IMG/VR virus record: IMGVR_UViG_2875722834_000006
Strand: one strand, 5' to 3'
From: a virus
Taxonomy: Duplodnaviria > Heunggongvirae > Uroviricota > Caudoviricetes
DNA length: 42,851 bases
The translations under genes and the position numbers were made by a program. Shown piece by piece: positions 5,741-42,851 of this stretch (the stretch's first letter is position 1; every line of letters begins with the position of its first letter). The notes under the pieces are model-generated. The model was not told where the DNA came from. It saw only the letters and a program-made list of their open reading frames with translations, and made no database searches.

Positions 5741-6822
5741 GTATTGAATCCCGCCAGGTTCTGGTAGAAGGCATATGGCTGAACGGAGAATGCTTCAGGC
5801 GGCATCAGCGTCATGCGTGCATGGGTGCCGTAGTCATCGCGCATATAGGTGACTTCTGCCAGTAGCAATTCAGTCTTCGGCAACCGTAAGGTGGGAAGAT
5901 CAACGGGGATCAATGTGTTTGGTTCCCACAGTTTCCCGTCTTTATCCCGCCAGGAATCGATGGTTACCGAGAGCTGTTTTGAACGTCCGTACCGCCGGTT
6001 CATTTCCCAGTCGATCGCACTTTGTGCCTGTTGAGTAGCCATCAGGGTACTTTCCACAATCGATATATGTTTTCGGTACCGCATGCGGGCGGCCTCCGGA
6101 TCTCTCGCCGTTGCCAGAGTCACAGCGTCATAGGCCGTATCAGGCGAATACCCTGCAATTGGAGAAACGCTCATTGATACACCGACATAATCTGAAAACC
6201 TGTCAGCCATCGATTTGCGGTAGTATGCCTGCTCGACATTTACCCCTTCGGCTATCCCACTTGCCGCACGACGTGTTCCCACCCGGGTCAGTAACAGGTT
6301 TCCATCGGGCTGATCGTAGTAAAGCAGAGCAGACCATCTGGCCACCCGATCGATGACTTCTTGCGGAGACTCACCCCAGTTCAGAGTGAACTGGGGTACC
6401 TTCACAAGTTCATCAACATCCGTGGTTACGGTGATGCCGTAGTAGGATGCCAGGCGAGAAGCAATTTCAAGCGCATTACTGGCATTGATGACGTTGTTAG
6501 GCCACTCGGCTGAGCAATCCACCAGGTCCTGACATTTGCTCCTGCCCGTGGCGCGGACCTCATGGCGGGAGCGCGATAGTGCGGGTTCCCAGTCATCAAC
6601 ATATCCCGTCAGTGTCAGATCATCTCCGATACGAACTTCACAAGACATTCCCTCTTCAACGAGTTGACGATCTTCGTTGCCAGGGAAGTAATCCATTAGC
6701 CCAAGATCGAAATCAGAGGGAAAACGCTCAATACCCCGCGTTACCCGGACAGAATCCCACCCCTCGATGATTTTGCCGTCGACCGTCAAAGAAACAACAT
6801 CCAGATCGCTGTCTGCATTCAT
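5737..6822 (-). CDS. Tail protein, Mu P (gp44) / P2 gpD-like
   Basis: 361-aa product; conserved position after DNA circulation gene in Mu-type tail modules. Confidence 0.65.
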   Translation of the reverse strand: MNADSDLDVVSLTVDGKIIEGWDSVRVTRGIERFPSDFDLGLMDYFPGNEDRQLVEEGMSCEVRIGDDLTLTGYVDDWEPALSRSRHEVRATGRSKCQDLVDCSAEWPNNVINASNALEIASRLASYYGITVTTDVDELVKVPQFTLNWGESPQEVIDRVARWSALLYYDQPDGNLLLTRVGTRRAASGIAEGVNVEQAYYRKSMADRFSDYVGVSMSVSPIAGYSPDTAYDAVTLATARDPEAARMRYRKHISIVESTLMATQQAQSAIDWEMNRRYGRSKQLSVTIDSWRDKDGKLWEPNTLIPVDLPTLRLPKTELLLAEVTYMRDDYGTHARMTLMPPEAFSVQPYAFYQNLAGFNT

Positions 6823-8222
6823 TGCCTCAGTACCTTCATGGTTGTCGGCATAAACGCCGGATGCGGTACGCGCGCTTCCTGTACCAGTTCATCTGCACGG
6901 GTGGCATCCTGGTATAATCGGTTTGCCAGCGTCAGCGCCGGAAGCGGCTGAGCGGTAGTAACCTGCAGAAGCTCGCTCAGACCAGAAGCACGCTCACTCA
7001 TCGTAGAAAGGAATGCCGATCTGACGGCGAGAAGCGCGTTATACATATCATCGTCTGCGCGGTCTCCAGCCAGAACCAGCGCCGTATCAAGTTGCACAGA
7101 AACTCGTTGAGTTAACTCTTCTGCCTCGTCTGTACTGGCTGGTCTGGAGTCCGCAGCGGCACTGGTCATGGCACCAGTACATAGCACAACAATCAGCGTG
7201 TTCATGGTCGCCGAAATCGCTTTGCTGCTGTCGGACTGCTGGTACTCCGTGCTGATTGAATTAGCCAGTTTTTCCAGCGCTGTGATTCGGTCATTAACGC
7301 TGCCGGCGCTGTTAAGAATTGCGTTTACCACGTCGGCGACGCCCTGGACAAACTCATCAGGTGTGTTGGAGCTGCTAAGCTGGCTCGACCTGTCGGTAAC
7401 ATTTTTCCGGTCCATTACCGACTGGGCTGTTACCTTGTCAGCCAGTGCTCTCTCATCATCCACATCAGCAACTGACGATTTGCCAGCAACAGCAGAGGAA
7501 CTACCGCCCACAGAGCCTTTACTGTAACGTCCGTACCGGGTATTCCCGAACGTGGAGTTCAGGACATTGCTGAGATTCGTGACCTGACTGATGGTGCTGT
7601 CAACCATGTTAGTCCAGAACGTGACCGTGCCTCTGATGGTGTTTATAGCCTGTGTGACACCGCGGATTTCACTCTTAACTCTGGCAATCGTGCTCAGCAC
7701 AGCAGTGCTGACCAGTTTCAGATAGTTGGTTTTCACCGTGGCGCCTGCAACGGTACTGCCCGTGACAGCAAACACTTTAAGCCCTGATTCAATTGCCATC
7801 AGGGTAAATTCAAATACTCGCCCGTTCTCCATCGAACCGGAAATACGCAAACCATTCTCAGGGATGGAAACCGTTAATTCGCCCAGTGTCGGATGGACAA
7901 GCGTACCGCTACCTTTTTGTTCACAGGCTTCAATCAGTGACTGGCGCTGCGTGATAGCATCGCCGCCGCCGTAAACCTGGCTGTTCTGGATCAAGAAACC
8001 GCGAATAACAAATCGCCGTGTTGCCCGCCCGATATCCTCTATCCAGGCTGTATCACGGTAGGGATATTCATGTACCGCCTGGCGTCGGCCGTGGCTCCCT
8101 TCCTCAGCAACAATTGCAAATGGCACACCTCTGAATGAGCTGGGCCGTAACTGCCCCTGCCAGTCATCGCTGGTATCTCCCCCCAAAAGAGAAGTTATTG
8201 CGTCCTGGATAATTGACGGCAT
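6819..8222 (-). CDS. DNA circulation protein (Mu N / gp43-like)
   Basis: N-terminus MPSIIQDAITSLLGG...SSFRGVPFAIV typical of Mu N family; ATG at 8222 with GGAGG RBS. Confidence 0.7.
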   Translation of the reverse strand: MPSIIQDAITSLLGGDTSDDWQGQLRPSSFRGVPFAIVAEEGSHGRRQAVHEYPYRDTAWIEDIGRATRRFVIRGFLIQNSQVYGGGDAITQRQSLIEACEQKGSGTLVHPTLGELTVSIPENGLRISGSMENGRVFEFTLMAIESGLKVFAVTGSTVAGATVKTNYLKLVSTAVLSTIARVKSEIRGVTQAINTIRGTVTFWTNMVDSTISQVTNLSNVLNSTFGNTRYGRYSKGSVGGSSSAVAGKSSVADVDDERALADKVTAQSVMDRKNVTDRSSQLSSSNTPDEFVQGVADVVNAILNSAGSVNDRITALEKLANSISTEYQQSDSSKAISATMNTLIVVLCTGAMTSAAADSRPASTDEAEELTQRVSVQLDTALVLAGDRADDDMYNALLAVRSAFLSTMSERASGLSELLQVTTAQPLPALTLANRLYQDATRADELVQEARVPHPAFMPTTMKVLRQ

Positions 8223-29889: not shown

Positions 29890-31827
29890 TCAGGCGGCTG
29901 CACCCGCCTTTTGATTTGCACATAATTCAGGAAGATTTGCTTCTACCAGCGCACGAGCGAACGGCGGCGGTACTGCGTTACCACAGCGCGCTACCTGCTT
30001 GTCTTTGGCGTAACGATTGCCGCGATAGTCCTGATCGATAACGTAGCCGTCAGGGAAGCCCTGCGCCTTATAAAGCTCATGCGGTTGCAGCATGCGCATT
30101 CCGATATCGACGATCTGGTACTTAACCCCCTCGATCGTCACCAGCCATTCATCCTCGCTATCACCGCAGTAGGTTTCGAGGAATGTCCGGACCTCGCCAA
30201 CGTGCTGGCCACCAGCGGTAATCGTCGGCATAGGTGTATCCATGGTCTGACCGTCGCGGCAGGTTCCGCGCAGCTTCACCAGGTGCGACGCAACTACCGC
30301 GTGGTGATCAACAGTAGTGACTGAGTGGGCAGGCTCATCCATACCAACACCCGGCCCCGTGTAATTCCCACCATAGTGCTTCGCCAGGAACGCGCTCACC
30401 GTTGCAAACTTATTACCACCAGCAGTGACCGTGCCGAGCGGGTTATTCAGTTGAAGAACACGCGGTTCTTGCCCTGGGCGTTCGCCGTACCCCATCTGGA
30501 TCAGTGTTGGAGTTACCAGCTGCGACTTACCGCCACCACCTGCAGTAATCGTCGCACTCGGTTCGTCAGCCCTGTGCCCAACACTGGCTCCAAACTGGCG
30601 GGCGATGACCGGCGCAACCACGCACGCGCGGGACTGCTTGAGGATTGTATGAGCGGGTTTATCCAGCGGGCGCGGCTTTGCCTGGTACTCACTGCCGCCA
30701 TTGCCAGCCAGGAACGGTGTCAGGGCGGCCTCAACTACGCCAAGCGCATGCCCATTCCCGCCCGGGCGCGCCGACGTACCAGCGGTGACAGTTGGTACCG
30801 GCTCGGTCACTGGCTGCCCGGTGGCCCCGGTGCGGAATTTAGTAAGATGCGGTACCGCCAGTGCGTAGCCATGCTTTTTAGTGATGGTCTGCAATGGCTC
30901 TAACAACGATTGCCCGCGGAAACAGTCATAACCTCCTTTCGTCGTGGTGTGGTTACACTTCACGATGAAAGGTGATGCGCTTTCGATAACAAAGCGCTGG
31001 ATGCCGCGCGCGATACGTTTGAGCGTATTTTCCGCCAGCGGCTTTTTGCGGTCGAAGATGGACCGGGCCGGGATATTCCAGTCAATGCACTCCGCCGCGG
31101 TACGCCATGGCGCCAGCTTGCCGCTTTGTACTTCCAGTGATTTTGGATCCCCATGAGTCGCTTCAGGCCAATGAATCTTGCGGCCGTCACAGCGCATGAC
31201 CATGAAGAAACGCTTTCTGATCGTCGGCGCGCCGTAGTCACATGCGCGCAGCTCCCGATAATCAACCTCATAACCAAGCCCGGCGATCAGCTGTTGCGCC
31301 TGCTGGCCGTGCGGCTCAATGGCAAGGAATTCACAAACCTCAGCCAGCGCAGGGTGATTCGCCGCGATCCCCGTCGACAGCATGCCGACAAATGCCTCGA
31401 ATGTTTCGCCAGCACGCTCAGGATCTGGGCGTAATTCTTCATCCAGCAGCGGGCCCCATGTCTTAAACTCTTCGACGTTCTCCAGCATCATGACGCGGGG
31501 ACGTACTGCCAGCGCCCAGCGCAGGACAATCCACGCCAGCCCGCGAATCTCTTTCTTAACCGGCTTAGCGCCCTTCGCCTTGGAAAAGTGGCGGCAGTCA
31601 GGGCTAAACCAGGCCAGACCGACAGGTTTACCGCTGGTGGCTGCGCTTGGGTCAACGTCAAACACCGACTCGCAATAATGCAGCGTGTCAGGGTGATTCG
31701 TCTTATGCATCGCAATAGCGTTTTCGTCGTGGTTGATAGCGATATCCACGCTACGCCCGATCGCCAGTTCAATGCCGGTACTCGCGCCGCCGCCACCAGC
31801 AAAGTTATCAACGATAATTTCACGCAT
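29890..31827 (-). CDS. DNA (cytosine-5)-methyltransferase with extended, internally repeated variable region
   Basis: Motif I FAGGGG, PC motif (SPDCRHFS), ENV (MLENVEEF), motif VIII (YGAPTIRKRFFMV), motif X (GNAVPPP); four T(I/V)TAGG-containing modules between VIII and IX. Confidence 0.85.
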   Translation of the reverse strand: MREIIVDNFAGGGGASTGIELAIGRSVDIAINHDENAIAMHKTNHPDTLHYCESVFDVDPSAATSGKPVGLAWFSPDCRHFSKAKGAKPVKKEIRGLAWIVLRWALAVRPRVMMLENVEEFKTWGPLLDEELRPDPERAGETFEAFVGMLSTGIAANHPALAEVCEFLAIEPHGQQAQQLIAGLGYEVDYRELRACDYGAPTIRKRFFMVMRCDGRKIHWPEATHGDPKSLEVQSGKLAPWRTAAECIDWNIPARSIFDRKKPLAENTLKRIARGIQRFVIESASPFIVKCNHTTTKGGYDCFRGQSLLEPLQTITKKHGYALAVPHLTKFRTGATGQPVTEPVPTVTAGTSARPGGNGHALGVVEAALTPFLAGNGGSEYQAKPRPLDKPAHTILKQSRACVVAPVIARQFGASVGHRADEPSATITAGGGGKSQLVTPTLIQMGYGERPGQEPRVLQLNNPLGTVTAGGNKFATVSAFLAKHYGGNYTGPGVGMDEPAHSVTTVDHHAVVASHLVKLRGTCRDGQTMDTPMPTITAGGQHVGEVRTFLETYCGDSEDEWLVTIEGVKYQIVDIGMRMLQPHELYKAQGFPDGYVIDQDYRGNRYAKDKQVARCGNAVPPPFARALVEANLPELCANQKAGAAA

Positions 31828-33154
31828 TGACGGCCCCCTGCATGCTGTTGAAGAGACCACCAGCGGTCGTGATAATTTCACTCGTCGGCATACGTTCGAG
31901 CCACAGCTGGTTGATATTGGCTTTCAGCTTGTTCTGCTGCGAAACAGGTAGAGCGTCAGCCCCTTCAATCTGGTTAAACACCAGTCCAACCTCAAGAGGC
32001 CAAACGCGCGATTCGTTTAACGCCTTGTCCTTTGATTCCTGCGTCTCACGGACATGGGCGCGGATCCCCCGAATATTTGACCATTTGGCTTTATCCAGGC
32101 TTTCCATGGTCGCGATGAATTCACTGTGGTTAATGCCGTATTCTTTCGCAGACTCAACGGCAACCGTGCGTAACCGCTCTGACATGTCTTGTTTCACGTC
32201 ATCGCTATCAAAGGGCAATGTTTCCAGCCATGCATTAACACCCACCAGGATGCTCTCGCTGATCAGCTTTTTCGCTCTGTCGATCGTCAGCGGTGAAACA
32301 TTGGTAAATTCAGGGTTTTCCAGAGAGTCGGCAGCCCAGGTATGACCAAACTTTGACTCGCTGAAGGTGTACTCGTCTTTCTTGCCGAACGCCGCGACAA
32401 CACAGGCCCAAGCCTCTACACCGCTGGTTTCCAGAATGGCTTTTTGGGTTAATGGCAGTTCTGCCTCTGATTTCTCCGGCACTACCTCAGCGTCCAGCTC
32501 CGGCGCCGCATCAGTTTGCGTTCTTCCCACGGCAAATTGGGCCAGCGACATCGCAGCACGGCCTTTGGCCTCCAGGTCGGTGCGGTTGATGTAACTGAAA
32601 CGCTCACCCCGCCATGTTTTGTCGAAGACCACGATAGCGCCAGCAAAAAATGCGCTGGTGGGCTGCTGCTTTTCGTCTTTCGGCACGAACCATGTAGGAA
32701 GATCGAAACCAATTCGGCCACGGATGAATGTGACGTGATCTGCCTCTACCGGCCACCACGTTTCACTCGTCGCAGACTTAATGAGAAAAACGTACCGACC
32801 ACCCTTTTCTCGCATGGCCATAGCGTGGTTAATGATGTGGGTCATTCCGGTAACGGCCTGCTTGTCGTGGTACTGAGAGCGGCTGTAAGGCGGGTTGCCA
32901 AACCCGGCACCACCGAGTTCTGCCAGCCGCTCTGACCAATCCTGCATCAGGGCATTATCTTCAGCCGTGTACCATGCTGGGCACTTCGCGTTGCTGTCGT
33001 CGGCAAAAAGGTCCAACACCAGAGGGCCGAACATCGCATTGATCCCCCAAAACAACAGATCCGGAGTGCGCCATTGATCACCGACCTCTTTCAACTCGTG
33101 TGCTGGTTTTGAACGGAGTTCAGCCAGTGCACGGCAGTATTTATTTTCCATCAT
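31820..33154 (-). CDS. Phage-type DNA N6-adenine methyltransferase (Dam family) with about 250-aa C-terminal extension of unknown function
   Basis: N-terminal DQWRTPDLLF and NPPYS motifs characteristic of phage Dam family; long uncharacterised C-terminal half. Confidence 0.7.
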   Translation of the reverse strand: MMENKYCRALAELRSKPAHELKEVGDQWRTPDLLFWGINAMFGPLVLDLFADDSNAKCPAWYTAEDNALMQDWSERLAELGGAGFGNPPYSRSQYHDKQAVTGMTHIINHAMAMREKGGRYVFLIKSATSETWWPVEADHVTFIRGRIGFDLPTWFVPKDEKQQPTSAFFAGAIVVFDKTWRGERFSYINRTDLEAKGRAAMSLAQFAVGRTQTDAAPELDAEVVPEKSEAELPLTQKAILETSGVEAWACVVAAFGKKDEYTFSESKFGHTWAADSLENPEFTNVSPLTIDRAKKLISESILVGVNAWLETLPFDSDDVKQDMSERLRTVAVESAKEYGINHSEFIATMESLDKAKWSNIRGIRAHVRETQESKDKALNESRVWPLEVGLVFNQIEGADALPVSQQNKLKANINQLWLERMPTSEIITTAGGLFNSMQGAVNA

Positions 33155-35232: not shown

Positions 35233-35859
35233 ATGGAAACGGTTGGTCAGCGCATTAAAGCCCTACGTAGGGTTACAAGAACCTCTCAAAAAGAACTGGG
35301 TAAGTTCTGCGGGGTTAGTGACGTAGCGGTGGGTTATTGGGAAAAGGATGTGAATATCCCAAACGGTGAATCGCTGGTTAAGCTGGCGAAATTCTTTAAC
35401 ACATCAATAGATTACATTCTTTACGGCACTGAATTTGAAGGCACCCTCATAACTAAAATGAGGCGTGTCCCGGTGATTTCATGGGTTCAAGCTGGGCAGT
35501 TCACGGAATGTAAAGCCGCTGATTTGTTCAGTGATGTCGATAAATGGGTTGAAACATCACTTCGCATTGGGGATAACTCGTTCGCTTTAGAGGTCAAAGG
35601 GGATTCAATGACCAATCCAAATGGCCTCCCAACAATCCCTGAAGGGGCAACCGTTATTGTTGATCCAGATGCCGAACCCCTTCATGGCAAGATTGTGGTT
35701 GCGCGTCTTGATGGCACTAATGAAGCGACTGTTAAAAAACTTGTCATTGATGGCCCACAAAAATTTTTAGTGCCACTAAATCCTCGCTACCCCAACATCC
35801 CGATCAATGGTAACTGCCTCATTATTGGCGTTGTTAAAGGCGTTCAGTACGAACTCTAA
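35233..35859 (+). CDS. cI: CI-like repressor (N-terminal HTH, C-terminal LexA/S24 peptidase-like autocleavage domain)
   Basis: HTH (TSQKELGKFCGVSDVAVGYWE) and S24 signature (EVKGDSMTNP...K) with divergent cro. Confidence 0.85.
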   Translation: METVGQRIKALRRVTRTSQKELGKFCGVSDVAVGYWEKDVNIPNGESLVKLAKFFNTSIDYILYGTEFEGTLITKMRRVPVISWVQAGQFTECKAADLFSDVDKWVETSLRIGDNSFALEVKGDSMTNPNGLPTIPEGATVIVDPDAEPLHGKIVVARLDGTNEATVKKLVIDGPQKFLVPLNPRYPNIPINGNCLIIGVVKGVQYEL

Positions 35860-35884: not shown

Positions 35885-35945
35885 TCAAGCTAAGTTTAGT
35901 TTGATGTTTTCACTTGACCAGAAAACTAAGTTAAGTTAGATTTTT
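35885..35945 (+). promoter_or_regulatory. Left operator/promoter region: PL-like promoter (TTGACC 35914-35919, TAGATT 35937-35942) with operator repeats CTAAGTTTAGTTTGAT and CTAAGTTAAGTTAGAT
   Basis: Same CTAAG-type repeats as in OR; 17-bp spacer promoter overlapping second repeat. Confidence 0.55.
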
Positions 35946-36486
35946 TTCTGTCGACACCAAACCACCGCGCCTGATGTGGTTAAAAGCAGGCCAAAGCAAT
36001 AAGAAGTGATCCCTGTTCTGGCTGCTCACTTTCCCCTTGAGGGTGACAGCCAGCTTTTTAAGGGCACAACAGGCGAGAGCATTGCTGATTATCGGACTGC
36101 GTGAGACGCGACGCGGTAAAGCAGGTAAACAGTGCTCTCACCGTTGTGGTAATGCGGCTCTGCGCACGTGACGAGGCCAACAAGTTTTTATTTCAACTTT
36201 TGAAATGAATACGTTTCTTGTGGTGTAGCGTCGCCGGTTCTGGCCGGTCCGGCAGGTGGAGGCACCACCGCCACAACAACATCATTGCTGTGTGTAGTCT
36301 TTGCCCATCACATCGGTGGGCACCTTTTTTACACAAGAGACAAGGGCATCACCGGGCGACGGGCTCATTCCCCAATCCACCCGGGCAAGAGGATAGCGAT
36401 TGCAGTCGCCGACAAATGCAGGTGCCCTTCTCTGTTGTGTATGGAGAAAGTTCGGCGGTGGCAGCCGCCATAACGAGGGTAAAACC

Positions 36487-36858
36487 ATGAGTAATGACCG
36501 CATGACCGTAGTGCCCGACTTTTTGGGCGAGCTGGATGCCGGTGTGTTCATGAACAAAATCGCGGCAGCACTTAACACCACCGCGCTTGGCGTTCTGAAC
36601 AACGGCAACAAAGGCAAAGTAGTCCTCACCTTTGATTTTGAGCGTATGGGTAATTCCGTTGAAGAGAAGCGCGTCAAGATCAAGCACAAGCTGAACTACA
36701 GCACCCCAACCCCGCGCGGTAAAGCCTCCGAAGAGGACACAACCGAAACCCCTATGTGGGTTAACAAAGGCGGGAAGCTAACCATCCTCCAGGAGGATCA
36801 GGGGCAACTGTTCGGGATCACCGGCGCGGTGGACGGAAAGCTTAAAGCGGCTCAGTGA
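36487..36858 (+). CDS. Hypothetical early protein (123 aa), YfdP-like position
   Basis: ATG at 36487 with GAGGG RBS; first recognisable ORF of leftward early operon. Confidence 0.5.
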   Translation: MSNDRMTVVPDFLGELDAGVFMNKIAAALNTTALGVLNNGNKGKVVLTFDFERMGNSVEEKRVKIKHKLNYSTPTPRGKASEEDTTETPMWVNKGGKLTILQEDQGQLFGITGAVDGKLKAAQ

Positions 36859-36914
36859 TCCGCAACAACAAACTCACTGATACCACTTTGATCATCAGTT
36901 AATAAGGAATTTTT

Positions 36915-37742
36915 ATGTCTCAGTTAGACAGCGGCACCTTCAAGCAGGTCAAAGACCTGGTCCTTTCCGGTTATCACCTGAATGATATTCATGGCCTGGC
37001 TTGCCCGACCGCATTACTGCCAGAGGGTACTGGCGTTGAAAGCCTTGAGCGCTTTTCTCTGGAACGTTTCCGCTTTCGTGGCGCAATGACCACAACCAGT
37101 ATTGACGACTTCGCACGTTATTCTAAAGGTTATGCCAGCGCCAGCGAGCCAGCTCGTTGCTTCATTGACGCTGACAACATGACCGCCCGTTCAGTGTTCA
37201 ACATCGGCACCCTGGATAACCCCGGTCACGCCGATAACGTTGCTTCAATCACTCTGAAGAAAACCGCCCCGTTTCGCGCGCTACTACAGATCGATGGTCA
37301 GCGTCTGAAACAAAAGCAAATCGCTGAATGGCTGGAAGACTGGAGTGATTACCTGCTGGCGTTTGACGCTGATGGTAAGACGATGGAGATTTCTCAGGCG
37401 GCTCAGGCCGTGCGTCGTATCACTATCCAACAAGCAACCCAGCAGGATCATGAAACTGGTGATTTCGCTTGTAAAAAATCACTCATGCAAAGCGTCGAAG
37501 CAAGCAGCAAAGACGTAATGCCGGTAGCGTTCGAATTCAAATGTGTGCCGTATGAAGGTCTGGGCGAACGCCGCTTTAGCTTGCGTAACAGCCTGCTGAC
37601 CAGCGATGAACCCTGCTTTGTTCTGCGCATCGTCCAACTTGAAGCCCAGGAAGAAGCAATCGCCAACGAATTCCGCGATTTACTGATCAGCAAGTTCGAC
37701 GGTGAATCAGTGGAAACTTTCATCGGTAACTTTAAAGCCTAA
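36915..37742 (+). CDS. YfdQ-like (DUF2303) prophage protein
   Basis: 275-aa ORF starting MSQLDSGTFKQVKDLVLSG with AAGGAA RBS; family assignment by recollection. Confidence 0.5.
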   Translation: MSQLDSGTFKQVKDLVLSGYHLNDIHGLACPTALLPEGTGVESLERFSLERFRFRGAMTTTSIDDFARYSKGYASASEPARCFIDADNMTARSVFNIGTLDNPGHADNVASITLKKTAPFRALLQIDGQRLKQKQIAEWLEDWSDYLLAFDADGKTMEISQAAQAVRRITIQQATQQDHETGDFACKKSLMQSVEASSKDVMPVAFEFKCVPYEGLGERRFSLRNSLLTSDEPCFVLRIVQLEAQEEAIANEFRDLLISKFDGESVETFIGNFKA

Positions 37743-37870
37743 TTGCTCTGCATTAAATCCCCGGCGCCGCGGGGATTTATTGAAGCGTAATTCCATTAAT
37801 TATCGCCATCCGGCGAGGGATTCGTGCAACCAAAATCTGCGCGGTACAGCGCGCCAATATGGAGAAAACC

Positions 37871-38410
37871 ATGAGCTACATTCAGACATTATCCGGCAAA
37901 CACTTTAATTACCTCGATATCCAACAGGACGATATCGTCATCGAGGATATTGCTACTGCGCTGTCTCATATCTGCCGTTTTGCTGGGCATCTTCCTGAGT
38001 TTTACAGCGTCGGCCAGCATAGCGTTTTAACCAGCCATCTCGTTCCGCAGGAGTTTGCCTTAGAAGCACTGCTTCATGATGCCGCCGAAGCCTACCTGCA
38101 AGATATTCCCTCACCGCTTAAGCGCCTGTTACCGGATTACCAGGTGATCGAAGCTCGCGTAGACGCTGCTATTCGCCAGAAATTTGGCCTACCGACGGAG
38201 CAACACCCAACAGTGAAATATGCCGATCTGGTGATGCTCGCCAGCGAACGCCGCGATTTTGAGATTGACGAAGGTTCCGTGTGGCCATGCCTCGATGGCG
38301 TTGTCCCGACGGACCTATTCATCATCAATCCAGTTCGTCCAGGCCAGTCATACGGCATGTTCATAAATCGCTTTAATGAGTTGATGGAGCAGCGTCAATG
38401 CGCCGCATGA
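37871..38410 (+). CDS. HD-domain phosphohydrolase (YfdR-like)
   Basis: H...HD motif (ALSHICRFAGH, LLHDAAEAY); GGAG RBS before ATG 37871. Confidence 0.6.
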   Translation: MSYIQTLSGKHFNYLDIQQDDIVIEDIATALSHICRFAGHLPEFYSVGQHSVLTSHLVPQEFALEALLHDAAEAYLQDIPSPLKRLLPDYQVIEARVDAAIRQKFGLPTEQHPTVKYADLVMLASERRDFEIDEGSVWPCLDGVVPTDLFIINPVRPGQSYGMFINRFNELMEQRQCAA

Positions 38411-38574
38411 AGGTAAAAGAACTCGTGGCGGAGGCGTTTGCCTCCGTGGCTGAATTGCCACCAAAGCATGCATCGCTTATGCGCGAAGTCGCTACCAGGC
38501 TTGAAGCTACGTTCGCAGCATTAACCGAATCATTGGCGCAACTGGAACAGGAACGTAAAGGTAAAACGCAATGA
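38407..38574 (+). CDS. Small hypothetical protein (55 aa), translationally coupled
   Basis: ATGA overlaps at both ends (38407-38410 and 38571-38574); below ORF-track size cutoff. Confidence 0.35.
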   Translation: MKVKELVAEAFASVAELPPKHASLMREVATRLEATFAALTESLAQLEQERKGKTQ

Positions 38575-38825
38575 CCGTATTTGAATATCTCCAGGGCCAC
38601 CCGAACGCCACCAGCGGTGAAATCGCAAGGGCGATGGGTAAAAAGACGCCAGCCGTAGCCAGCGCACTATCTCAGCTTTATGCAACAGGGAGAATTGTTA
38701 AGTCTGGCGCACGCGGTGGGATACCGACATACCGCGTCAATGATCTGCCGTTTGGATGCAGCAATAACTTAACGCTGATATTTAACCAGCTTCTGCGAAA
38801 CGTCCGCAAAGGAGCAGCCCAATGA
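38571..38825 (+). CDS. Small winged-helix DNA-binding protein
   Basis: 84-aa ORF with HTH-like TSGEIARAMGKKTPAVASALSQL. Confidence 0.5.
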   Translation: MTVFEYLQGHPNATSGEIARAMGKKTPAVASALSQLYATGRIVKSGARGGIPTYRVNDLPFGCSNNLTLIFNQLLRNVRKGAAQ

Positions 38826-39139
38826 GCAAATTTACGGCATTACCAGTAGAACGCGACCAATACGGCTACTGGACTCACCCCGTCTATGAGCAATTTTGCG
38901 ATGGTCGTGAATTTATCTCACCTGATGAGTTCAACGCCTGGCTGGATAAAAACGGCCTCGAATGGACGGTAGTTTACCGGGATGAAGAAGACATCGATCC
39001 TGAAGTTGATGGTTACGATATTTCAGCCTGGCAGCCAGAATCGCCAGCCGGTGAAGGTTGGTTTGTCGGTTCAATTCACAACGCCGAAGATGGCGCGGTA
39101 TGCATCTGGTTACGTAACGTTGAAGGCGGTGCAGCATGA
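38822..39139 (+). CDS. Hypothetical protein (105 aa)
   Basis: ORF overlapping upstream stop (ATGA), acidic/aromatic composition. Confidence 0.45.
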   Translation: MSKFTALPVERDQYGYWTHPVYEQFCDGREFISPDEFNAWLDKNGLEWTVVYRDEEDIDPEVDGYDISAWQPESPAGEGWFVGSIHNAEDGAVCIWLRNVEGGAA

Positions 39140-39293
39140 CAGTCCATACACTGAAGCAATGCCGCCCGGACCAAGAAGAAGCGCATGACTGGCGCTGACT
39201 GGCTGACAGCGATTGAGATGTACAAACCAACTGTGCGCATCGTGGAAGTTAATGTGCCACGCGCCGCTGGCATTCGCATCAAAGGAGAGTGAT

Positions 39294-39809
39294 ATGGCGT
39301 TAACACACCGCGAACTCTGTCAGATTGCGTACAAGTTCCTTAAGCGCAACGGGTTCAAGGTTTGTTTTCATGACCGCTTTATAGCTGTAACCAGTACCGG
39401 AGAACAGCCAGATGCTATGGGATTCAGAAATTCAGCATCATGCCTGATAGAGGCGAAGTGTTCTCGTGCTGACTTGTTGGCAGATAGAAAAAAGCGTTTC
39501 CGTAAAAATCCCTCACTTGGCATGGGCGACTGGCGATTCTTTATTAGTGAGCCGGGAATTATTTCAGTTGAGGATTTACCTCCCGGCTGGGGATTACTTC
39601 ACGTTGTTAACGGAAGAGTACGGAAAGTACATGGGTGGCCCAAGGGTAATTGCTGTTGGGGTAATCCTGACGATAAGCCATTTACTGGAAATAAGCAGGT
39701 TGAATGCGATTACATGTTATCTGCATTAAGGCGCATGGAGTTGAGAGGGCACCTTAATGAAATATATGACGGTGTAATTGTTAATAAGAAAGAAGGAAAC
39801 GCGGCATGA
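39294..39809 (+). CDS. PD-(D/E)xK-type nuclease-fold protein (MmcB-like)
   Basis: QPDAMGF...LIEAKCS matches PD-x(n)-E-x-K arrangement; AAGGAG RBS before ATG 39294. Confidence 0.5.
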   Translation: MALTHRELCQIAYKFLKRNGFKVCFHDRFIAVTSTGEQPDAMGFRNSASCLIEAKCSRADLLADRKKRFRKNPSLGMGDWRFFISEPGIISVEDLPPGWGLLHVVNGRVRKVHGWPKGNCCWGNPDDKPFTGNKQVECDYMLSALRRMELRGHLNEIYDGVIVNKKEGNAA

Positions 39810-40420
39810 CCACTATTACCAAAGAACGTATTGAATTGTTCATTAAAAATCCGCTTGAAAACGGACTTACCCGTGGCGAACAAATGGAACTGGCACGGAT
39901 TGCACTGGCATCACTGGAAGCGGAGCCTGTAAGCCAAGCTTACAACTTGCCACAAACGCACTTTGAACAGGTTGCTGACCTTTACGAAATGCAATTTGAG
40001 GATGGACGCACTTGTACCTTTCACACTGATGCGCAAAAGGCTGTGCAATGGCTTCAGGCGTGCGACGGAAACAGGGTTCAGGAATACGTTAAGCTGGAAC
40101 GATTGCAGAACGCACTGTCTGGCAACTCTCCGGTAGCTCCGGATGGTTTGTTAGGTTGTGGTGAAAATTGCTGGTCATGTGGCAAGTATTTTACATACGA
40201 ACAGCACTCTGAATGCGACGGATACTGCCCACACTGTAACTCTCCTGTTGATCTTGATGATGAAGAAGACCAGCCATCGAAAGTAGTGCCAACTAATCCT
40301 ACGGAAGAGATGATTTCTAACGCATGGAGGGAGGCAATCGGCAAGTGCGATCATGAAACCATTAAGCGCATATACGCGACAATGCTCGCAGCAGCACCAC
40401 AGCAGGAGGTGAAGCTGTGA
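39806..40420 (+). CDS. Hypothetical protein with C-terminal Cys-rich zinc-ribbon-like motif
   Basis: CGENCWSCG...CDGYCPHC cluster; overlapping start/stop with neighbours. Confidence 0.5.
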   Translation: MTTITKERIELFIKNPLENGLTRGEQMELARIALASLEAEPVSQAYNLPQTHFEQVADLYEMQFEDGRTCTFHTDAQKAVQWLQACDGNRVQEYVKLERLQNALSGNSPVAPDGLLGCGENCWSCGKYFTYEQHSECDGYCPHCNSPVDLDDEEDQPSKVVPTNPTEEMISNAWREAIGKCDHETIKRIYATMLAAAPQQEVKL

Positions 40421-40656
40421 CTAAATCAGAATTCCTCCAGAAGGTAGCGGTGCTGGCCGGTGAATGCCATAAGTTGGCCTGTGAGCTGGACATAGGCGAT
40501 GAACGAATAGAGATGTTCGAGATTTATGAAGTGCTTCGCCGAATCCAGCGGAGTGGTGCAGCCGGTGAAATGCTGGCTGCAACAAACCCTTTACTATCCC
40601 CTGGAATACCTGAGGACACTGAATGGGTAAATTTCCATAAAGAGGATCATGCCTGA
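40417..40656 (+). CDS. Hypothetical protein (79 aa)
   Basis: ORF translationally coupled to neighbours. Confidence 0.45.
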   Translation: MTKSEFLQKVAVLAGECHKLACELDIGDERIEMFEIYEVLRRIQRSGAAGEMLAATNPLLSPGIPEDTEWVNFHKEDHA

Positions 40657-40832
40657 TGCCTAAGACAATCATCATAACCTTAGAAATTGATGTTCCGGAA
40701 CACGCTACCGATAGCGACATATCAGATTGGGTAGACGTCGAGTACGGGCAGTGTGGTGGACAAAAATTAGATAACCCCTGCCGTGGCGATGCCACCGAAG
40801 TAATAAACCATTCATGGAAATTTGAGAGCTAA
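40656..40832 (+). CDS. Small hypothetical protein (58 aa)
   Basis: ATG overlapping upstream TGA; ends 3 nt before exonuclease start; below ORF-track cutoff. Confidence 0.3.
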   Translation: MPKTIIITLEIDVPEHATDSDISDWVDVEYGQCGGQKLDNPCRGDATEVINHSWKFES

Positions 40833-40834
40833 AG

Positions 40835-41407
40835 ATGAACGACTTAATGATTGACCTCGAATCAATGGGGAAAAAGCCAAACGCGCCGATCGTCTCAGTT
40901 GGTGCTGTCTTTTTTAACCCTCAAACAGGTGAACTTGGCCAAGAATTCTATACAGCCGTCTCGCTTGAAAGCTCAATGGATCAAGGCGCGGTACCGGATG
41001 GAGATACGATTCTTTGGTGGCTAAAACAAAGCCCTGAAGCGCGCTCAGCTATCTGCGTTGATGATGCGATGCCTATCACTGATGCACTGTCGGAACTTAG
41101 CCATTTCATTCACCGGCATGCATATAATCTCAAATACATGAAGGTCTGGGGTAACGGGGCCACCTTTGACAATGTGATTTTGCGCGGAGCTTACGAACGC
41201 GCCGGACGCATTTGCCCGTGGGAATTTTGGAACGATCATGATGTACGAACGATTGTTACCCTCGGTCGCAGTGTTGGTTTCGATCCGAAGCGTGACATGC
41301 CTTTCATTGGCGATGTTCACAACGCCCTGGCTGATGCGCGCCATCAGGCAAAATATGTGTCAGCAATTTGGCAGAAAATTATCCCTGCCACCAGCACCAA
41401 CGAGTAA
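40835..41407 (+). CDS. 3'-5' exonuclease, DnaQ-like (DEDDh)
   Basis: N-terminal MIDLES (D-x-E), downstream acidic residues and HNALADA (H-x4-D) motif. Confidence 0.6.
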   Translation: MNDLMIDLESMGKKPNAPIVSVGAVFFNPQTGELGQEFYTAVSLESSMDQGAVPDGDTILWWLKQSPEARSAICVDDAMPITDALSELSHFIHRHAYNLKYMKVWGNGATFDNVILRGAYERAGRICPWEFWNDHDVRTIVTLGRSVGFDPKRDMPFIGDVHNALADARHQAKYVSAIWQKIIPATSTNE

Positions 41408-41414
41408 ACCACAC

Positions 41415-41438
41415 AGCCCGGGTGCAGCCGGGCTTTAT
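41415..41438 (+). terminator. Hairpin (AGCCCGG-GTGCAG-CCGGGCT) with short U-tract after exonuclease gene
   Basis: Perfect 7-bp stem; weak T-run. Confidence 0.35.
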
Positions 41439-41451
41439 GGAGAAGGAAACC

Positions 41452-41661
41452 ATGGCAAAGCTAATGAAAGCGAGTCTCTGGAGTAAACGCGAATTTACCA
41501 AAGACTCCATTCCTGACAACCGTACAATAAAACGTTGGGTCGAAAACGGATTACTCATGGGAAGGATTGTAGATGGTTCAGTTTTTGTCTATGAAACCGA
41601 AAAGTGGGGAGTTGACTCAATTGTTAATCAGGCGGTACGTCAGTTAATAATTGAGGGTTGA
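41452..41661 (+). CDS. xis: Excisionase (Xis-like DNA-binding protein)
   Basis: 69-aa ORF immediately upstream of and overlapping integrase start, GGAGAAGGA RBS. Confidence 0.6.
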   Translation: MAKLMKASLWSKREFTKDSIPDNRTIKRWVENGLLMGRIVDGSVFVYETEKWGVDSIVNQAVRQLIIEG

Positions 41662-41663
41662 CC

Positions 41664-42851
41664 ATGGCAGCAAGGCCACGAAAAAAAGAATACCGCCACC
41701 TTCCTGATTATCTTTTTTTTGATAAAGATCGTGGCGTGTATAAGTTCACGCTTATAACTGGGAAAAAGAAAACTCTAGGTTCGGATCGAGTAATGGCTAT
41801 CGCCATCGCCCGAGAATATAACCTGAGGATGCGCCCTGAAAATACACCATCGATAGATTCATTAATTCGGGAATCGGGAGGGCTGAATGGTGAATCCCAC
41901 CCGTTTTCTGAACATGTTGATCGCATTATGGAGAGAGCTATCAAAGATGAGCAACCGTCTAAAAGCACACTTGACGATTGGAATAATGATGCCATCAGGG
42001 TTAAAGAATTTTTTAATAACATACCCGCATGCGACATTGAGCTTGAGCACGTAAATGCCTACATACGAAATTACCATTCTGAATCGTCGGCCAATGTTCA
42101 GAACCGAAAAGTTAGCTTCCTGAAAAAGCTATTCTCTTATGCTGTTGATGAATCGCTAATGATGGATAACCCTGCAACACGGAAAAAAATGCGGCGTGTC
42201 GATAAAAAGGTCCGCCGGCGACTTACTTTGGAGCAGTTCCTGGCCATACATGCAGCTGCTGAACCCTGGCTGAAGACAGCAATGGACCTTGCATTACAAA
42301 CTACTCAAGCACGCCTGGAAGTATCCCGGATCCGGTACTCGATCAAGGAACCTCAAGAAGGAGTTTGCGGCTGTGTATGGTTCGATCAGGAAGAGGCTGG
42401 CATATTCGGAACGCTTTACATTCATCGGCAAAAAGTGCAACACAAAGAGGCCTCTCACGTTGCAATTCCGATCGGCAGGGCCCTGAAAGAGATCATCGAC
42501 AATAGCAGAGACAATGTGGCCAGTCCTTATGTTGTTCACCGGCTTTTGGAAAAGAGAAGCAATCCGATAAGCAAGGAAGTTAACCACCCAACACAGGTGG
42601 CCCCTGATTATTTGAGCAGAGCATTTTCAGAGCTGCGGGACCGGATAGGTATAGCGGCAGAATTACCTATCAAAGAAAGGCCAACTTTCCACGAGATTAG
42701 AGCGCTGGCGGCTCATATTTTCGAAAGACAAGGTATCGATCCGCAGGCAAGGATGGCCCATAGTGATGCAAAATCGACAAAAATTTATACCCAGAACCAT
42801 GTTGAATGGGTAGAAGTTCCTCATGCTGAAATTGTCTTTAAAGCCGGGTGA
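41664..42851 (+). CDS. int: Tyrosine integrase (site-specific recombinase)
   Basis: C-terminal catalytic region with HEIRAL...AHSDAKSTKIYT (R..H..R..Y pattern); GAGGG RBS before ATG 41664; stop is last codon of window. Confidence 0.85.
   Translation: MAARPRKKEYRHLPDYLFFDKDRGVYKFTLITGKKKTLGSDRVMAIAIAREYNLRMRPENTPSIDSLIRESGGLNGESHPFSEHVDRIMERAIKDEQPSKSTLDDWNNDAIRVKEFFNNIPACDIELEHVNAYIRNYHSESSANVQNRKVSFLKKLFSYAVDESLMMDNPATRKKMRRVDKKVRRRLTLEQFLAIHAAAEPWLKTAMDLALQTTQARLEVSRIRYSIKEPQEGVCGCVWFDQEEAGIFGTLYIHRQKVQHKEASHVAIPIGRALKEIIDNSRDNVASPYVVHRLLEKRSNPISKEVNHPTQVAPDYLSRAFSELRDRIGIAAELPIKERPTFHEIRALAAHIFERQGIDPQARMAHSDAKSTKIYTQNHVEWVEVPHAEIVFKAG

Follow-up and report, generated by a model that had tools for sequence, protein, structure and literature searches.

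A heavily shuffled exo-xis accessory stretch with two apparently intact nuclease genes in a lambda-like prophage

Lambda and the Stx phages share an early-left site between the recombination and early genes on one side and xis-int on the other, the exo-xis region with ea22, ea8.5 and orf60a/61/63/73. This region is described as variable and as housing small, functionally uncharacterised genes (PMC8614690, PMC3824215), and a term search of PMC8614690 and PMC10789677 gave no mention of a nuclease or of a 171-aa gene there. Two enzyme families described elsewhere are relevant for the locus analyzed here. MmcB acts in crosslink repair and has been connected, in Caulobacter only, with crosslinker resistance and SOS regulation (PMC9578287), and DUF1052, represented by the structure 3dnx, has been placed within the PD-(D/E)XK superfamily (PMC3424549). 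EcD, an E. coli homologue of the T4 exonuclease DexA, is reported to attack T4 DNA while leaving unmodified DNA intact, and to shield cells from T4 (PMC12153337).

We analyzed a cluster of five genes at positions 39294-41407 of a prophage sequence of 42,851 nucleotides, the whole of which is called the window below. All five genes lie on the plus strand and are tightly coupled by ATGA, GTGA and TGATG junctions, and the ORFs and their coupling agree with an earlier note on this DNA. The 204-aa ORF starts within the end of the 171-aa ORF (ATGA, 39806 vs 39809), the 79-aa ORF overlaps the 204-aa ORF by GTGA (40417 vs 40420), the 58-aa ORF joins the 79-aa ORF at TGATG (40656) and the 190-aa ORF begins 2 nt past the end of the 58-aa ORF (40832 to 40835). 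As homologues were found in PHROGs for all five proteins, these are not chance ORFs. The features of the region are the following:

39176..39292, plus strand: Ea22 remnant, the 3' end of an ead/Ea22-like gene (PGAP label on identical DNA in NZ_CM174221)
39294..39809, plus strand: predicted 171-aa MmcB-like PD-(D/E)xK nuclease-fold protein (phrog_9263/phrog_631; Upf89.0 of P7)
39806..40420, plus strand: predicted chimeric 204-aa protein of the Eaa/DUF551 family (homologues and module alignment)
40417..40656, plus strand: 79-aa protein, phrog_4220 (PHROGs match)
40656..40832, plus strand: 58-aa protein, phrog_8773 (PHROGs match)
40835..41407, plus strand: predicted 190-aa DEDDh 3'-5' exonuclease of the Rv2179c-like/T4 DexA family, phrog_255 (PF16473)
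41414..41434, no strand assigned: G+C-rich hairpin AGCCCGG-GTGCAG-CCGGGCT between the exonuclease and xis-like genes
41452..41661, plus strand: xis-like gene, 69 aa (assigned by position only)
41658..42851, plus strand: tyrosine integrase with Arm DNA-binding domain

The hairpin was flagged on the minus strand by the scan and its plus-strand T-run is weak. The xis-like gene overlaps the start of the integrase gene and a 69-aa gene is found at the equivalent position in Salmonella; HMM searches with its product gave no significant match. A separate promoter for the exonuclease gene did not emerge from the promoter scan, which gave fewer sites than in shuffled sequence.

The operon to which the cluster belongs runs from cI over a leader with a terminator at 36302-36322, a phrog_204 gene, YfdQ, an HD phosphohydrolase and small genes to the Ea22 remnant, the cluster, xis and int. 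An sRNA-like element with an RprA seed, widespread in prophages, is present at 36194-36331. The earlier note had seen the cluster in the position where lambda carries exo/bet/gam, which does not agree with its surroundings: the Ea22 remnant lies directly upstream, xis and int follow directly downstream, and the cluster abuts xis instead of lying between cIII/kil and the exo-xis genes. Because the Ea22 remnant directly precedes it, the cluster is assigned to the exo-xis ('ea') region, in the place of ea22/ea8.5 of lambda. The remnant was identified on identical DNA in NZ_CM174221, where PGAP annotates an ead/Ea22-like family protein without its N-terminus. Starting near 39260, the sequence shares 98-99% identity with the 3' end of Ea22 plus the nuclease gene of Stx phages and P7, and this identity is confined to about 39260-39828. 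The Stx1 phage AU5Stx1 shows the order gam-bet-exo-...-Ea22-[171 aa]-DUF551-...-xis-int with an intact gam-bet-exo module, and P7 the order Ead/Ea22-Upf89.0-Upf89.5.

The predicted active site of the 171-aa protein consists of E37, D40, E53 and K55 and is followed by the signature S57-R58-x-D60-x-x-x-D64. In an alignment of 50 diverse family members D40 is invariant and E53 and K55 are at least 90% conserved, and in two further family alignments (30 and 10 members) all three residues are invariant. A confident structure model places them on strands 2 and 3 of an alpha-beta-beta-beta-alpha-beta core, so that the core fold, the acidic residue of strand 2 and the (D/E)xK of strand 3, by which the PD-(D/E)xK superfamily is recognized, are all present; the PD...EAK motif pointed out in the earlier note is thus confirmed by family alignments and model. 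Structure and profile comparison revealed a resemblance to 3DNX, the solved MmcB-like structure, including an SRxDFxxD signature after the ExK. The protein gave no match to PF06319 (DUF1052) even at E <= 10, to Pfam, NCBIfam or PADLOC in general, or above noise in a single-sequence search of the PDB, and sub-threshold PF06319 matches were obtained for only 6 of 50 relatives (best E 2.9e-4). We regard it as apparently intact and as belonging to a very large, phage-borne branch of the MmcB-like PD-(D/E)xK nucleases. This family comprises about 3,300 clusters at 50% identity, has no Pfam model of its own, and its usual length is 171 aa; the cluster of the essentially identical P0002 (99%, 171 aa) alone holds 1,363 member sequences.

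Members of the nuclease family are common to Stx-converting phages, P1/P7, lambdoid prophages and virulent phages. They adjoin primase or helicase genes in Det7 (as gp76), Klebsiella phi1_146041, Vibrio C2, Vibrio K452 and Acinetobacter HFM1. Of nine non-lambdoid phages sampled, four showed the primase adjacency, and these belong to only two or three independent lineages; in Vibrio phage Kuja the neighbour is a methyltransferase. Two Vibrio phages carry 650-aa genes downstream of their family member, and Pfam gave no match for these genes. Fusion partners of longer members (TniB, DUF550, DUF551) were also considered and set aside, as they looked like read-through into adjoining genes and gave no functional lead. 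As the family has no fixed partner and its contexts are very different, from the temperate exo-xis region to virulent replication modules and the methyltransferase of Kuja, a single role for all members is not assured. HFM1 carries a separate VRR-NUC gene directly beside its copy, which argues for a role distinct from the VRR-NUC type. The 171-aa protein would bind Mg2+ through E37, D40 and E53 together with K55 and cut DNA, and its most likely job would be to process, as an endonuclease, branched or damaged intermediates of replication and recombination, a proposal made because of the primase and helicase adjacency in virulent phages and the part of MmcB in crosslink repair. That the whole family might be an unrecognised replisome-associated nuclease, for example clearing crosslinks, stalled forks or primers, is a tentative and rather doubtful extension. 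If true, the nuclease could in Stx phages add to the known effects of the exo-xis region on damage-triggered induction.

The 204-aa protein combines parts of different origin. Its residues 1-105 correspond to the N-terminal modules of DUF551 proteins and align with P0166 (90% identity) and P0159 (81%), both over the aligned part; they are followed by a GNSPVAPDG junction, kept as GNSPVxPDG in 14 of 14 aligned sequences, by a Cys-rich CxxC...CxxC module (residues 118-147) and by a conserved tail (residues 159-203). The DUF551 domain itself (PF04448) was not matched, the C-terminal half being the Cys-rich module instead. As for the Cys4-type ribbon proposed in the earlier note, the protein does carry C122xxC125...C139xxC142, a pattern that is conserved within its module, but matches to zinc-ribbon and rubredoxin HMMs were insignificant (E >= 0.065). 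The 6,153 homologues, with partial coverage, are named DUF551, DUF550, Eaa or Ea22, and searches of Pfam, NCBIfam and PADLOC gave no match for the 204-, 79- and 58-aa proteins. An identity as Lar restriction-alleviation protein was rejected: the name comes from P0185 and from a different module, since only residues 227-324 at the C-terminus of P0185 match the 204-aa protein and the CxxC stretch at about residues 126-200, the probable source of the name, is absent from it. The AF2 model (pLDDT 45.6) was unusable. From the alignments, the protein is read as a chimera of a DUF551 N-terminal half and a Cys-rich module also carried by other proteins.

The 190-aa protein matches PF16473 from end to end (E 6.9e-72; 241.3 bits, the gathering score being 27; all 177 profile positions covered). 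Its catalytic residues D7, E9, D112, H162 and D167 are invariant and stand opposite D7/E9/D119/H186/D191 of T4 DexA, as listed in PMC12153337, and PDB entry 8kel (T4 DexA sequence) was matched with E 8.4e-10. This bears out the DEDDh/DnaQ-like exonuclease of the earlier note, and the catalytic residues of both enzymes of the cluster are complete on alignment. By sequence, the 190-aa protein is a DEDDh 3'-5' exonuclease of the DexA/Rv2179c type. It would degrade DNA from 3' ends like T4 DexA and E. coli EcD, and could serve lytic-growth scavenging or end-trimming, or the attack on foreign modified DNA. EcD itself (HAK9828821.1) was represented in our comparison by a 189-aa prophage ORF found with the EcD forward primer; this ORF has the expected Ala78 and its C-terminus lies one nucleotide off the EcD reverse primer, for which no match was found in the viral contigs.

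The distribution of the five genes is mosaic. The whole stretch occurs in 3 of 5,426 E. coli genomes and pieces of it in 2,137, and among 80 viral loci with the nuclease gene the exonuclease is found in three and the 79-aa gene in five. Nuclease neighbours in 71 viral loci are Ea22-like at position -1 (10 loci) and Eaa-type at +1 (12 loci), and diverse otherwise. A Salmonella relative shows YfdQ...DUF550-exo-xis-int, and the exo-xis-int arrangement is conserved in Salmonella and in phages Flotzy, Eeyore and Phi06_2987. Judged from these arrangements, exonuclease, xis and int are the backbone and the other cluster genes variable cargo. The translational coupling of five genes would fit a functional unit too, but the distribution data speak against it: with three of 5,426 genomes carrying the whole stretch and three of 80 nuclease loci the exonuclease, the five genes are not a co-inherited system. 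It is therefore probable that the segment is the exo-xis accessory stretch of a lambdoid, e14/KplE1-like prophage, built from one-gene modules, each of which recombines on its own at conserved junctions. On this reading it neither co-evolved as a system nor stands in for Red.

A quite different explanation had been put forward in the earlier note, in which the cluster provides alternative recombination or anti-nuclease functions in the place and role of lambda exo/bet/gam. Proteins of the Bet, Exo, Erf and RecT types were found nowhere in the early-left operon, so that a recombination function could be missing, and the operon holds two nucleases and the cluster genes are translationally coupled. 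However, the ea22/ea8.5 site is not the Red site, Stx phages carry the 171-aa gene together with gam-bet-exo, and the cluster contains neither an annealing protein nor a Gam-like protein; no match to Exo/YqaJ, Bet/RecT/Erf or Gam was found with Pfam, PHROG or NCBIfam in the early-left genes from 36487 to 41661. Furthermore, a 3'-5' DEDDh exonuclease has a polarity opposite to that of Red Exo and wrong for 3' recombinogenic tails, and the cluster genes are inherited independently. We consider this explanation very unlikely. Still more improbable is the reading of the 171- and 204-aa ORFs as junk or as pseudogenes in decay, which follows the RefSeq annotation of the nearest genome. There PGAP uses the labels 'frameshifted' and 'incomplete' and splits the identical 204-aa ORF into two partial pseudogenes (NZ_CM174221); a genuine Ea22 remnant adjoins the two ORFs and the 204-aa ORF fuses parts of two families. 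Yet the 171-aa ORF of NZ_CM174221 is uninterrupted and identical to that of the window, its product has family-typical length, all catalytic residues and the 1,363 sequences of the P0002 cluster on its side, and the identical 204-aa protein is encoded on 193 contigs. On this evidence the pseudogene labels look artefactual, the product of reference models that are missing or do not fit.

More weight, even if we still hold it to be unlikely, is due to the idea that the cluster serves conflict between phages or between phage and host, with the DexA-like exonuclease as an HREX-type exclusion nuclease directed against incoming phage DNA with 5hmC-type modification, and with the small proteins and the MmcB-like nuclease adding defence or anti-defence functions. 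Integrase-proximal accessory genes are a common home of such functions. Activity of EcD against T4 has been reported (PMC12153337), the EcD primers lead to a prophage gene from the PF16473 family whose product is 35% identical to the 190-aa protein, and the latter keeps all catalytic residues and, with W132 (FWND), the equivalent of DexA W152 (FW152NQ). This sole experimental lead for the exonuclease family points to cell defence against T4, opposite to the interference with host defence suggested in the earlier note. On the other hand D83 aligns with the tetramer-forming D90 of DexA, where EcD, a dimer-only enzyme, has Ala, and in the MAFFT alignment R145/S146 stand opposite DexA D169, said to read 5hmC, where the EcD-like protein has E, in a poorly aligned region with D150 nearby. 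As the D90 equivalent is kept and R145/S146 appear to face D169, the 190-aa protein does not seem to carry the EcD signature. PADLOC returned only a weak generic DEDDh match (E 7e-4) for it and no match for the remaining proteins of the cluster. The genes belong to the early-left operon, under repressor control and behind a terminator, with no convincing promoter of their own, and the nuclease family occurs in virulent phages within replication modules. We thus prefer independently recombining accessory modules as explanation of the cluster.

In summary the region appears to be an ordinary, heavily shuffled accessory region of a lambda-like prophage with two apparently intact nucleases, and the findings do not alter current views of phage biology. 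The value of the analysis lies in annotation and triage, as a gene called frameshifted by RefSeq is, by its sequence, an intact MmcB-like nuclease, and phage records mislabel this gene as 'minor tail protein', 'structural protein' or 'adenylosuccinate synthase'. Stx-converting phages carry the same gene, and their exo-xis region affects prophage induction and with it the release of toxin. The exonuclease is of the DexA family, one E. coli member of which has just been reported to act in defence against T4. With modules that are independent, there is no need to seek a shared phenotype of the cluster as a 'system' or an activity like that of Red.

Compared with the exo-xis region of lambda and Stx phages, the early-left site is the same and the 171-aa gene, directly 3' of ea22 in Stx phages, is located here 3' of an Ea22 remnant, whereas no exo-xis gene of lambda itself is intact in this prophage and the exonuclease gene is not part of the lambda region. 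With T4 DexA and E. coli EcD the 190-aa protein shares PHROG 255, the Pfam family and the five DEDDh residues, at 24% identity to DexA and 35% to the EcD-like prophage exonuclease, but the extra loops of DexA are absent. Rv2179c of Mycobacterium tuberculosis, the founder of PF16473, is a 3'-5' exoribonuclease in a cellular context; the 190-aa protein matches the family model at full length, and a PDB sequence search at E <= 10 gave no match to Rv2179c. The nuclease family lies below the Pfam model of the MmcB-like/DUF1052 proteins (PF06319; 3DNX, SPO1766; Caulobacter MmcB), has the additional conserved motifs GMGDWRF and GWGLL, and is phage-borne, whereas MmcB is an alpha-proteobacterial SOS gene. 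To the small junction-resolving PD-(D/E)xK nucleases of the Hjc and VRR-NUC types, its likeness is one at the level of the superfamily only.

A single gene train on the + strand begins at about 36.4 kb and continues up to the window's last base. Since the LexA-type cI gene lies upstream and is read in the same direction, and Cro, a CII/YmfL-like gene, an O-like replication gene, two DNA methyltransferases and a Q-like gene are read in the opposite direction, this train is the early-left operon of a lambdoid prophage. Its features are as follows.

35233-35859, same direction as the train, upstream: LexA-type cI gene
36194-36331, +: RprA-like element of the early-left leader, its 3' end being the terminator at 36302-36322
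36487-36858, +: phrog_204 gene, the first early-left gene
36915-37742, +: YfdQ/DUF2303 (phrog_210) gene
37859-38410, +: HD phosphohydrolase gene, YfdR/dNMP-phosphatase type
between the HD phosphohydrolase gene and the Ea22 remnant, +: three small genes, one for a winged-helix protein
39176-39292, +: remnant (117 nt) of an ead/Ea22-like gene
39294-39809, +: gene of the 171-aa protein (nuclease)
39806-40420, +: gene of the 204-aa protein, ATGA junction with the 171-aa gene
40417-40656, +: gene of the 79-aa protein, GTGA junction with the 204-aa gene
40656-40832, +: gene of the 58-aa protein, TGATG junction with the 79-aa gene
40835-41407, +: gene of the 190-aa protein (exonuclease), 2-nt gap after the 58-aa gene
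41452-41661, +: xis-like gene, 69 aa
+, stop at the final base of the window: integrase gene

The earlier note had marked out 39294-41407 as a run of tightly coupled ORFs; these limits coincide with the start of the first and the stop of the last of the five genes, and the three overlapping junctions and the 2-nt gap bear out the coupling. The closest relative, an E. coli genome (NZ_CM174221), is 99.6% identical over 39000-41700, and its prophage adjoins yejO and narP. A G+C-rich hairpin (41414-41434) lies after the exonuclease stop and ahead of the xis-like start, and two of the ten differences to this genome (41413 and 41417) are located at or inside it. For the gene in the xis position (41452-41661) Pfam and PHROG gave nothing significant, only a weak HTH match to DUF4817 (E 0.015) at best, and it is a putative excisionase, assigned by position alone. 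In the early-right operon the two large methyltransferase genes occupy 29890-33154 on the - strand; one encodes 663 aa and the other 444 aa, with a PAPS-reductase/ParB-like part in the 444-aa protein. They are followed by an Ant-like gene and a gene for a 353-aa phrog_96 'HNH endonuclease'.

The interval from cI to the first early-left gene holds a promoter-like site (35914-35942) and the strong terminator, so that expression of the five genes from the early-left promoter should require read-through of 36302-36322; no convincing internal promoter was found in the cluster. The leader element ending in this terminator scores 41.5 bits as RprA (RF00034), the gathering score being 70. Over 27 nt it copies exactly the conserved 3' region of RprA that is single-stranded and includes the seed; a hairpin and a T-run follow, and these parts correspond to the processed RprA of 47 nt, which is active on its own (PMC9262595). 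A 23-mer from this element is present in at least 120 viral contigs, none of them with the 5' half of chromosomal rprA. Among 76 distinct variants the upstream sequence is unrelated, and the terminator stems differ yet keep their pairing through compensatory changes; a hairpin plus T-run is formed by 47 of 49 distinct 3' parts, and 75 of 121 copies have a cI-type gene on their own strand, some 1.1 kb upstream. The elements look like a prophage sRNA family with the RprA seed, and these putative sRNAs may mimic processed RprA. An Rfam scan of 12 of these viral loci gave no match at the gathering score, and our literature search found no description of such RprA-seed prophage elements. The gene narP, next to which the prophage of the nearest relative is found, is a reported RprA target.

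The five genes are independent modules, as only three complete E. coli genomes out of 5,426 contain the entire 39000-41700 stretch and 2,137 contain parts of it, as the 98–99% identical segment common to Stx and P7 phages reaches only from the 3' end of Ea22 to the first 20 nt of the 204-aa gene, and as, of the 80 viral loci that carry the nuclease gene, three have the exonuclease and five the 79-aa gene. The earlier note had placed the cluster at the position of lambda exo/bet/gam and inferred alternative recombination or anti-nuclease functions. The position needs correcting, as the cluster lies where lambda has ea22/ea8.5. It encodes no annealing protein, the polarity of its exonuclease is the wrong one, and in Stx phages the nuclease gene is found alongside gam-bet-exo. 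In the Stx1 phage AU5Stx1 the order is N, cIII, kil, gam, bet, exo, the equivalents of orf60a/63/61/73, Ea22, the 171-aa gene, DUF551, others, xis and int. A replacement of Red is therefore not supported. No resemblance to a recombinase or to Gam was found among the early-left genes, and the prophage may simply be without a Red-type module, or alternatively the phrog_204 and YfdQ genes of unknown function may hide one. In a Salmonella prophage (locus L110) YfdQ and the exo-xis-int block are conserved together.

To the 171-aa protein no match was found in Pfam, NCBIfam or PADLOC, and it is assigned to two PHROGs of unknown function. A word-indexed homologue search gave 325 relatives, none informatively named and those with a named source all from Enterobacterales, and when 1.84 billion representatives were searched with a profile, 3,286 clusters passed E ≤ 1e-3 and 2,443 passed E ≤ 1e-10. 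D40 is invariant among 30 close and 50 distant members, and conservation reaches at least 90% at E37, E53, K55, S57, D64, K67 and R70. The GMGDWRF and GWGLL motifs are conserved too. The only PDB match of the profile of the 50 distant members was 3dnx (E 5.5e-5), aligned over G-x-x-x-D...IE-x-K-x-S-R-x-D-F-x-x-D. This is the structure of DUF1052/PF06319/COG5321, counted among the PD-(D/E)XK families by Steczkiewicz et al. (PMC3424549), and PF06319 is now named 'MmcB-like' in Pfam. Sub-threshold matches to PF06319 and Hjc were obtained for six and seven of the 50 members, respectively, Foldseek against viral models returned several proteins named MmcB family or MmcB-like DNA repair protein, and the annotators of the Vibrio phage Her copy had independently recorded 'spo1766 structure'. 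The PD-(D/E)xK motif read from the sequence in the earlier note was thus correct, and the protein is best placed in the MmcB-like clade as a phage branch, although it is too distant from PF06319 to count as a member. In GenBank phage records (H8, which is P7 upf89.0, H57, H69, H70 and H81) members of this family are labelled 'minor tail protein', 'adenylosuccinate synthase', 'structural protein' or 'coil containing protein'.

Homologues of this nuclease are present in 642 phage records. In temperate enterobacterial phages the recurring order is an Ea22-like gene, the nuclease gene and an Eaa/DUF551-type gene, as in P7 with Ead/Ea22 (upf88.3), Upf89.0 and Upf89.5 inside the C1-controlled hea operon; over 71 viral loci the commonest neighbours are Ea22-like upstream (10) and Eaa-type downstream (12), the rest being diverse. 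In other phages the gene is located in replication modules. It overlaps the start of a T4 gp61-like primase gene in Salmonella phage Det7 (gp76/gp77) and Klebsiella phage phi1_146041, is flanked by helicase and primase genes in Vibrio phage vB_VpS_C2, lies one gene away from a primase gene in Vibrio phage K452 and, in Acinetobacter phage HFM1, has a DEAD-like helicase gene before it and a VRR-NUC gene after it. E37, D40, E53, K55, R58, D60, D64, K67 and R70 are invariant across these replication-module phages. Caulobacter MmcB is an SOS-regulated PD-(D/E)XK endonuclease required for resistance to mitomycin C and cisplatin (PMC9578287). From these contexts and from MmcB we infer, as our preferred reading, that the predicted nuclease would act on replication, repair or recombination intermediates.

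The 204-aa protein has 6,153 homologues, mostly with partial coverage and named DUF551, DUF550 (now dATP/dGTP pyrophosphohydrolase), Eaa or Ea22. In a module alignment residues 1-105 correspond to the N-terminal half of DUF551 proteins, the junction is a conserved GNSPVxPDG stretch (residues 106-114, window 40121-40147), and residues 106-203 have six Cys, among them C122xxC125 and C139xxC142, as well as an acidic linker and a helical tail with AAPQQEVK at its end. This second module reappears behind quite different N-terminal parts; one protein sharing it is named 'Lar family', a name that does not carry over as the Lar-like part is a different segment. The Cys pattern makes the zinc-ribbon reading of the earlier note reasonable, but zinc-ribbon and rubredoxin HMMs matched only at E ≥ 0.065, the AF2 model was unusable, and the protein is, by its alignments, a chimera of shuffled modules. 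Exchange points between Eaa, DUF551, DUF550 and Lar-containing proteins (homologues P0127-P0192) are GNSPVxPDG, an N-terminal MTTITKE leader and the C-terminal AAPQQEVK, and these stretches look like recombination junctions within coding sequence. In the nearest genome RefSeq/PGAP labels the 171-aa gene 'frameshifted' and splits the 204-aa ORF into two partial 'incomplete' pseudogenes (labelled spans 6295-6473 and 6807-7421 of locus L001, window 39294-39809 and 39806-40420). Both ORFs are intact there, the nuclease ORF being uninterrupted and identical to that of the window; the cluster of the essentially identical (99%) 171-aa protein P0002 comprises 1,363 sequences, and 193 contigs carry the identical 204-aa protein. 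We regard these labels as artefacts.

The 190-aa protein matches the full model of PF16473 (Rv2179c-like, E 7e-72) and phrog_255 'exonuclease', the PHROG of T4 dexA, and phmmer found PDB 8kel, whose sequence is T4 DexA (E 8e-10). D7, E9, D112, H162 and D167 are family-invariant and align with the DexA catalytic residues listed in PMC12153337. The DEDDh assignment of the earlier note is thereby upheld, and the protein is predicted to be a DexA-family 3'-5' exonuclease. Its gene behaves differently from the others: exo-xis-int forms a lasting block in phages Flotzy, Eeyore and Phi06_2987 as well as many genomes of E. coli, and a 75% identical Salmonella homologue stands in YfdQ...DUF550-exo-xis-int, so that the exonuclease is backbone and the genes lying between it and the HD phosphohydrolase are variable cargo.

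DexA is reported to switch between a tetramer degrading unmodified DNA and a dimer degrading 5hmC DNA, and its E. coli homologue EcD to degrade the DNA of T4, though not unmodified DNA, and to shield cells from this phage, termed 'HREX' (PMC12153337). Using the EcD primers of the supplement to that paper we located an ORF of 189 aa with the expected Ala78, found in P2-like prophage contexts near a Dam-type methylase gene and an integrase gene. Judged by these cloning primers, the EcD/HREX exonuclease appears to be a prophage gene; prophages are not mentioned in PMC12153337. The gene is found at 6401-6991 (-) of locus L107 and also at L086, L091, L101, L102 and L104, about 2.5 kb from the integrase gene of a P2-like early region, with a 75-aa ORF alone between it and the Dam-type methylase gene. 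The 190-aa protein is 35% identical to this ORF. It resembles DexA in W132, the equivalent of W152, and in the poorly aligned region around D169 it has R145/S146 opposite this residue, with D150 nearby; EcD is defined by the absence of a D90 equivalent, whereas here an Asp (D83) is kept. It is therefore of the DexA family but cannot be filed as EcD-type. The region is an ordinary mosaic accessory segment of the exo-xis ('ea') region with further members of known enzyme kinds.
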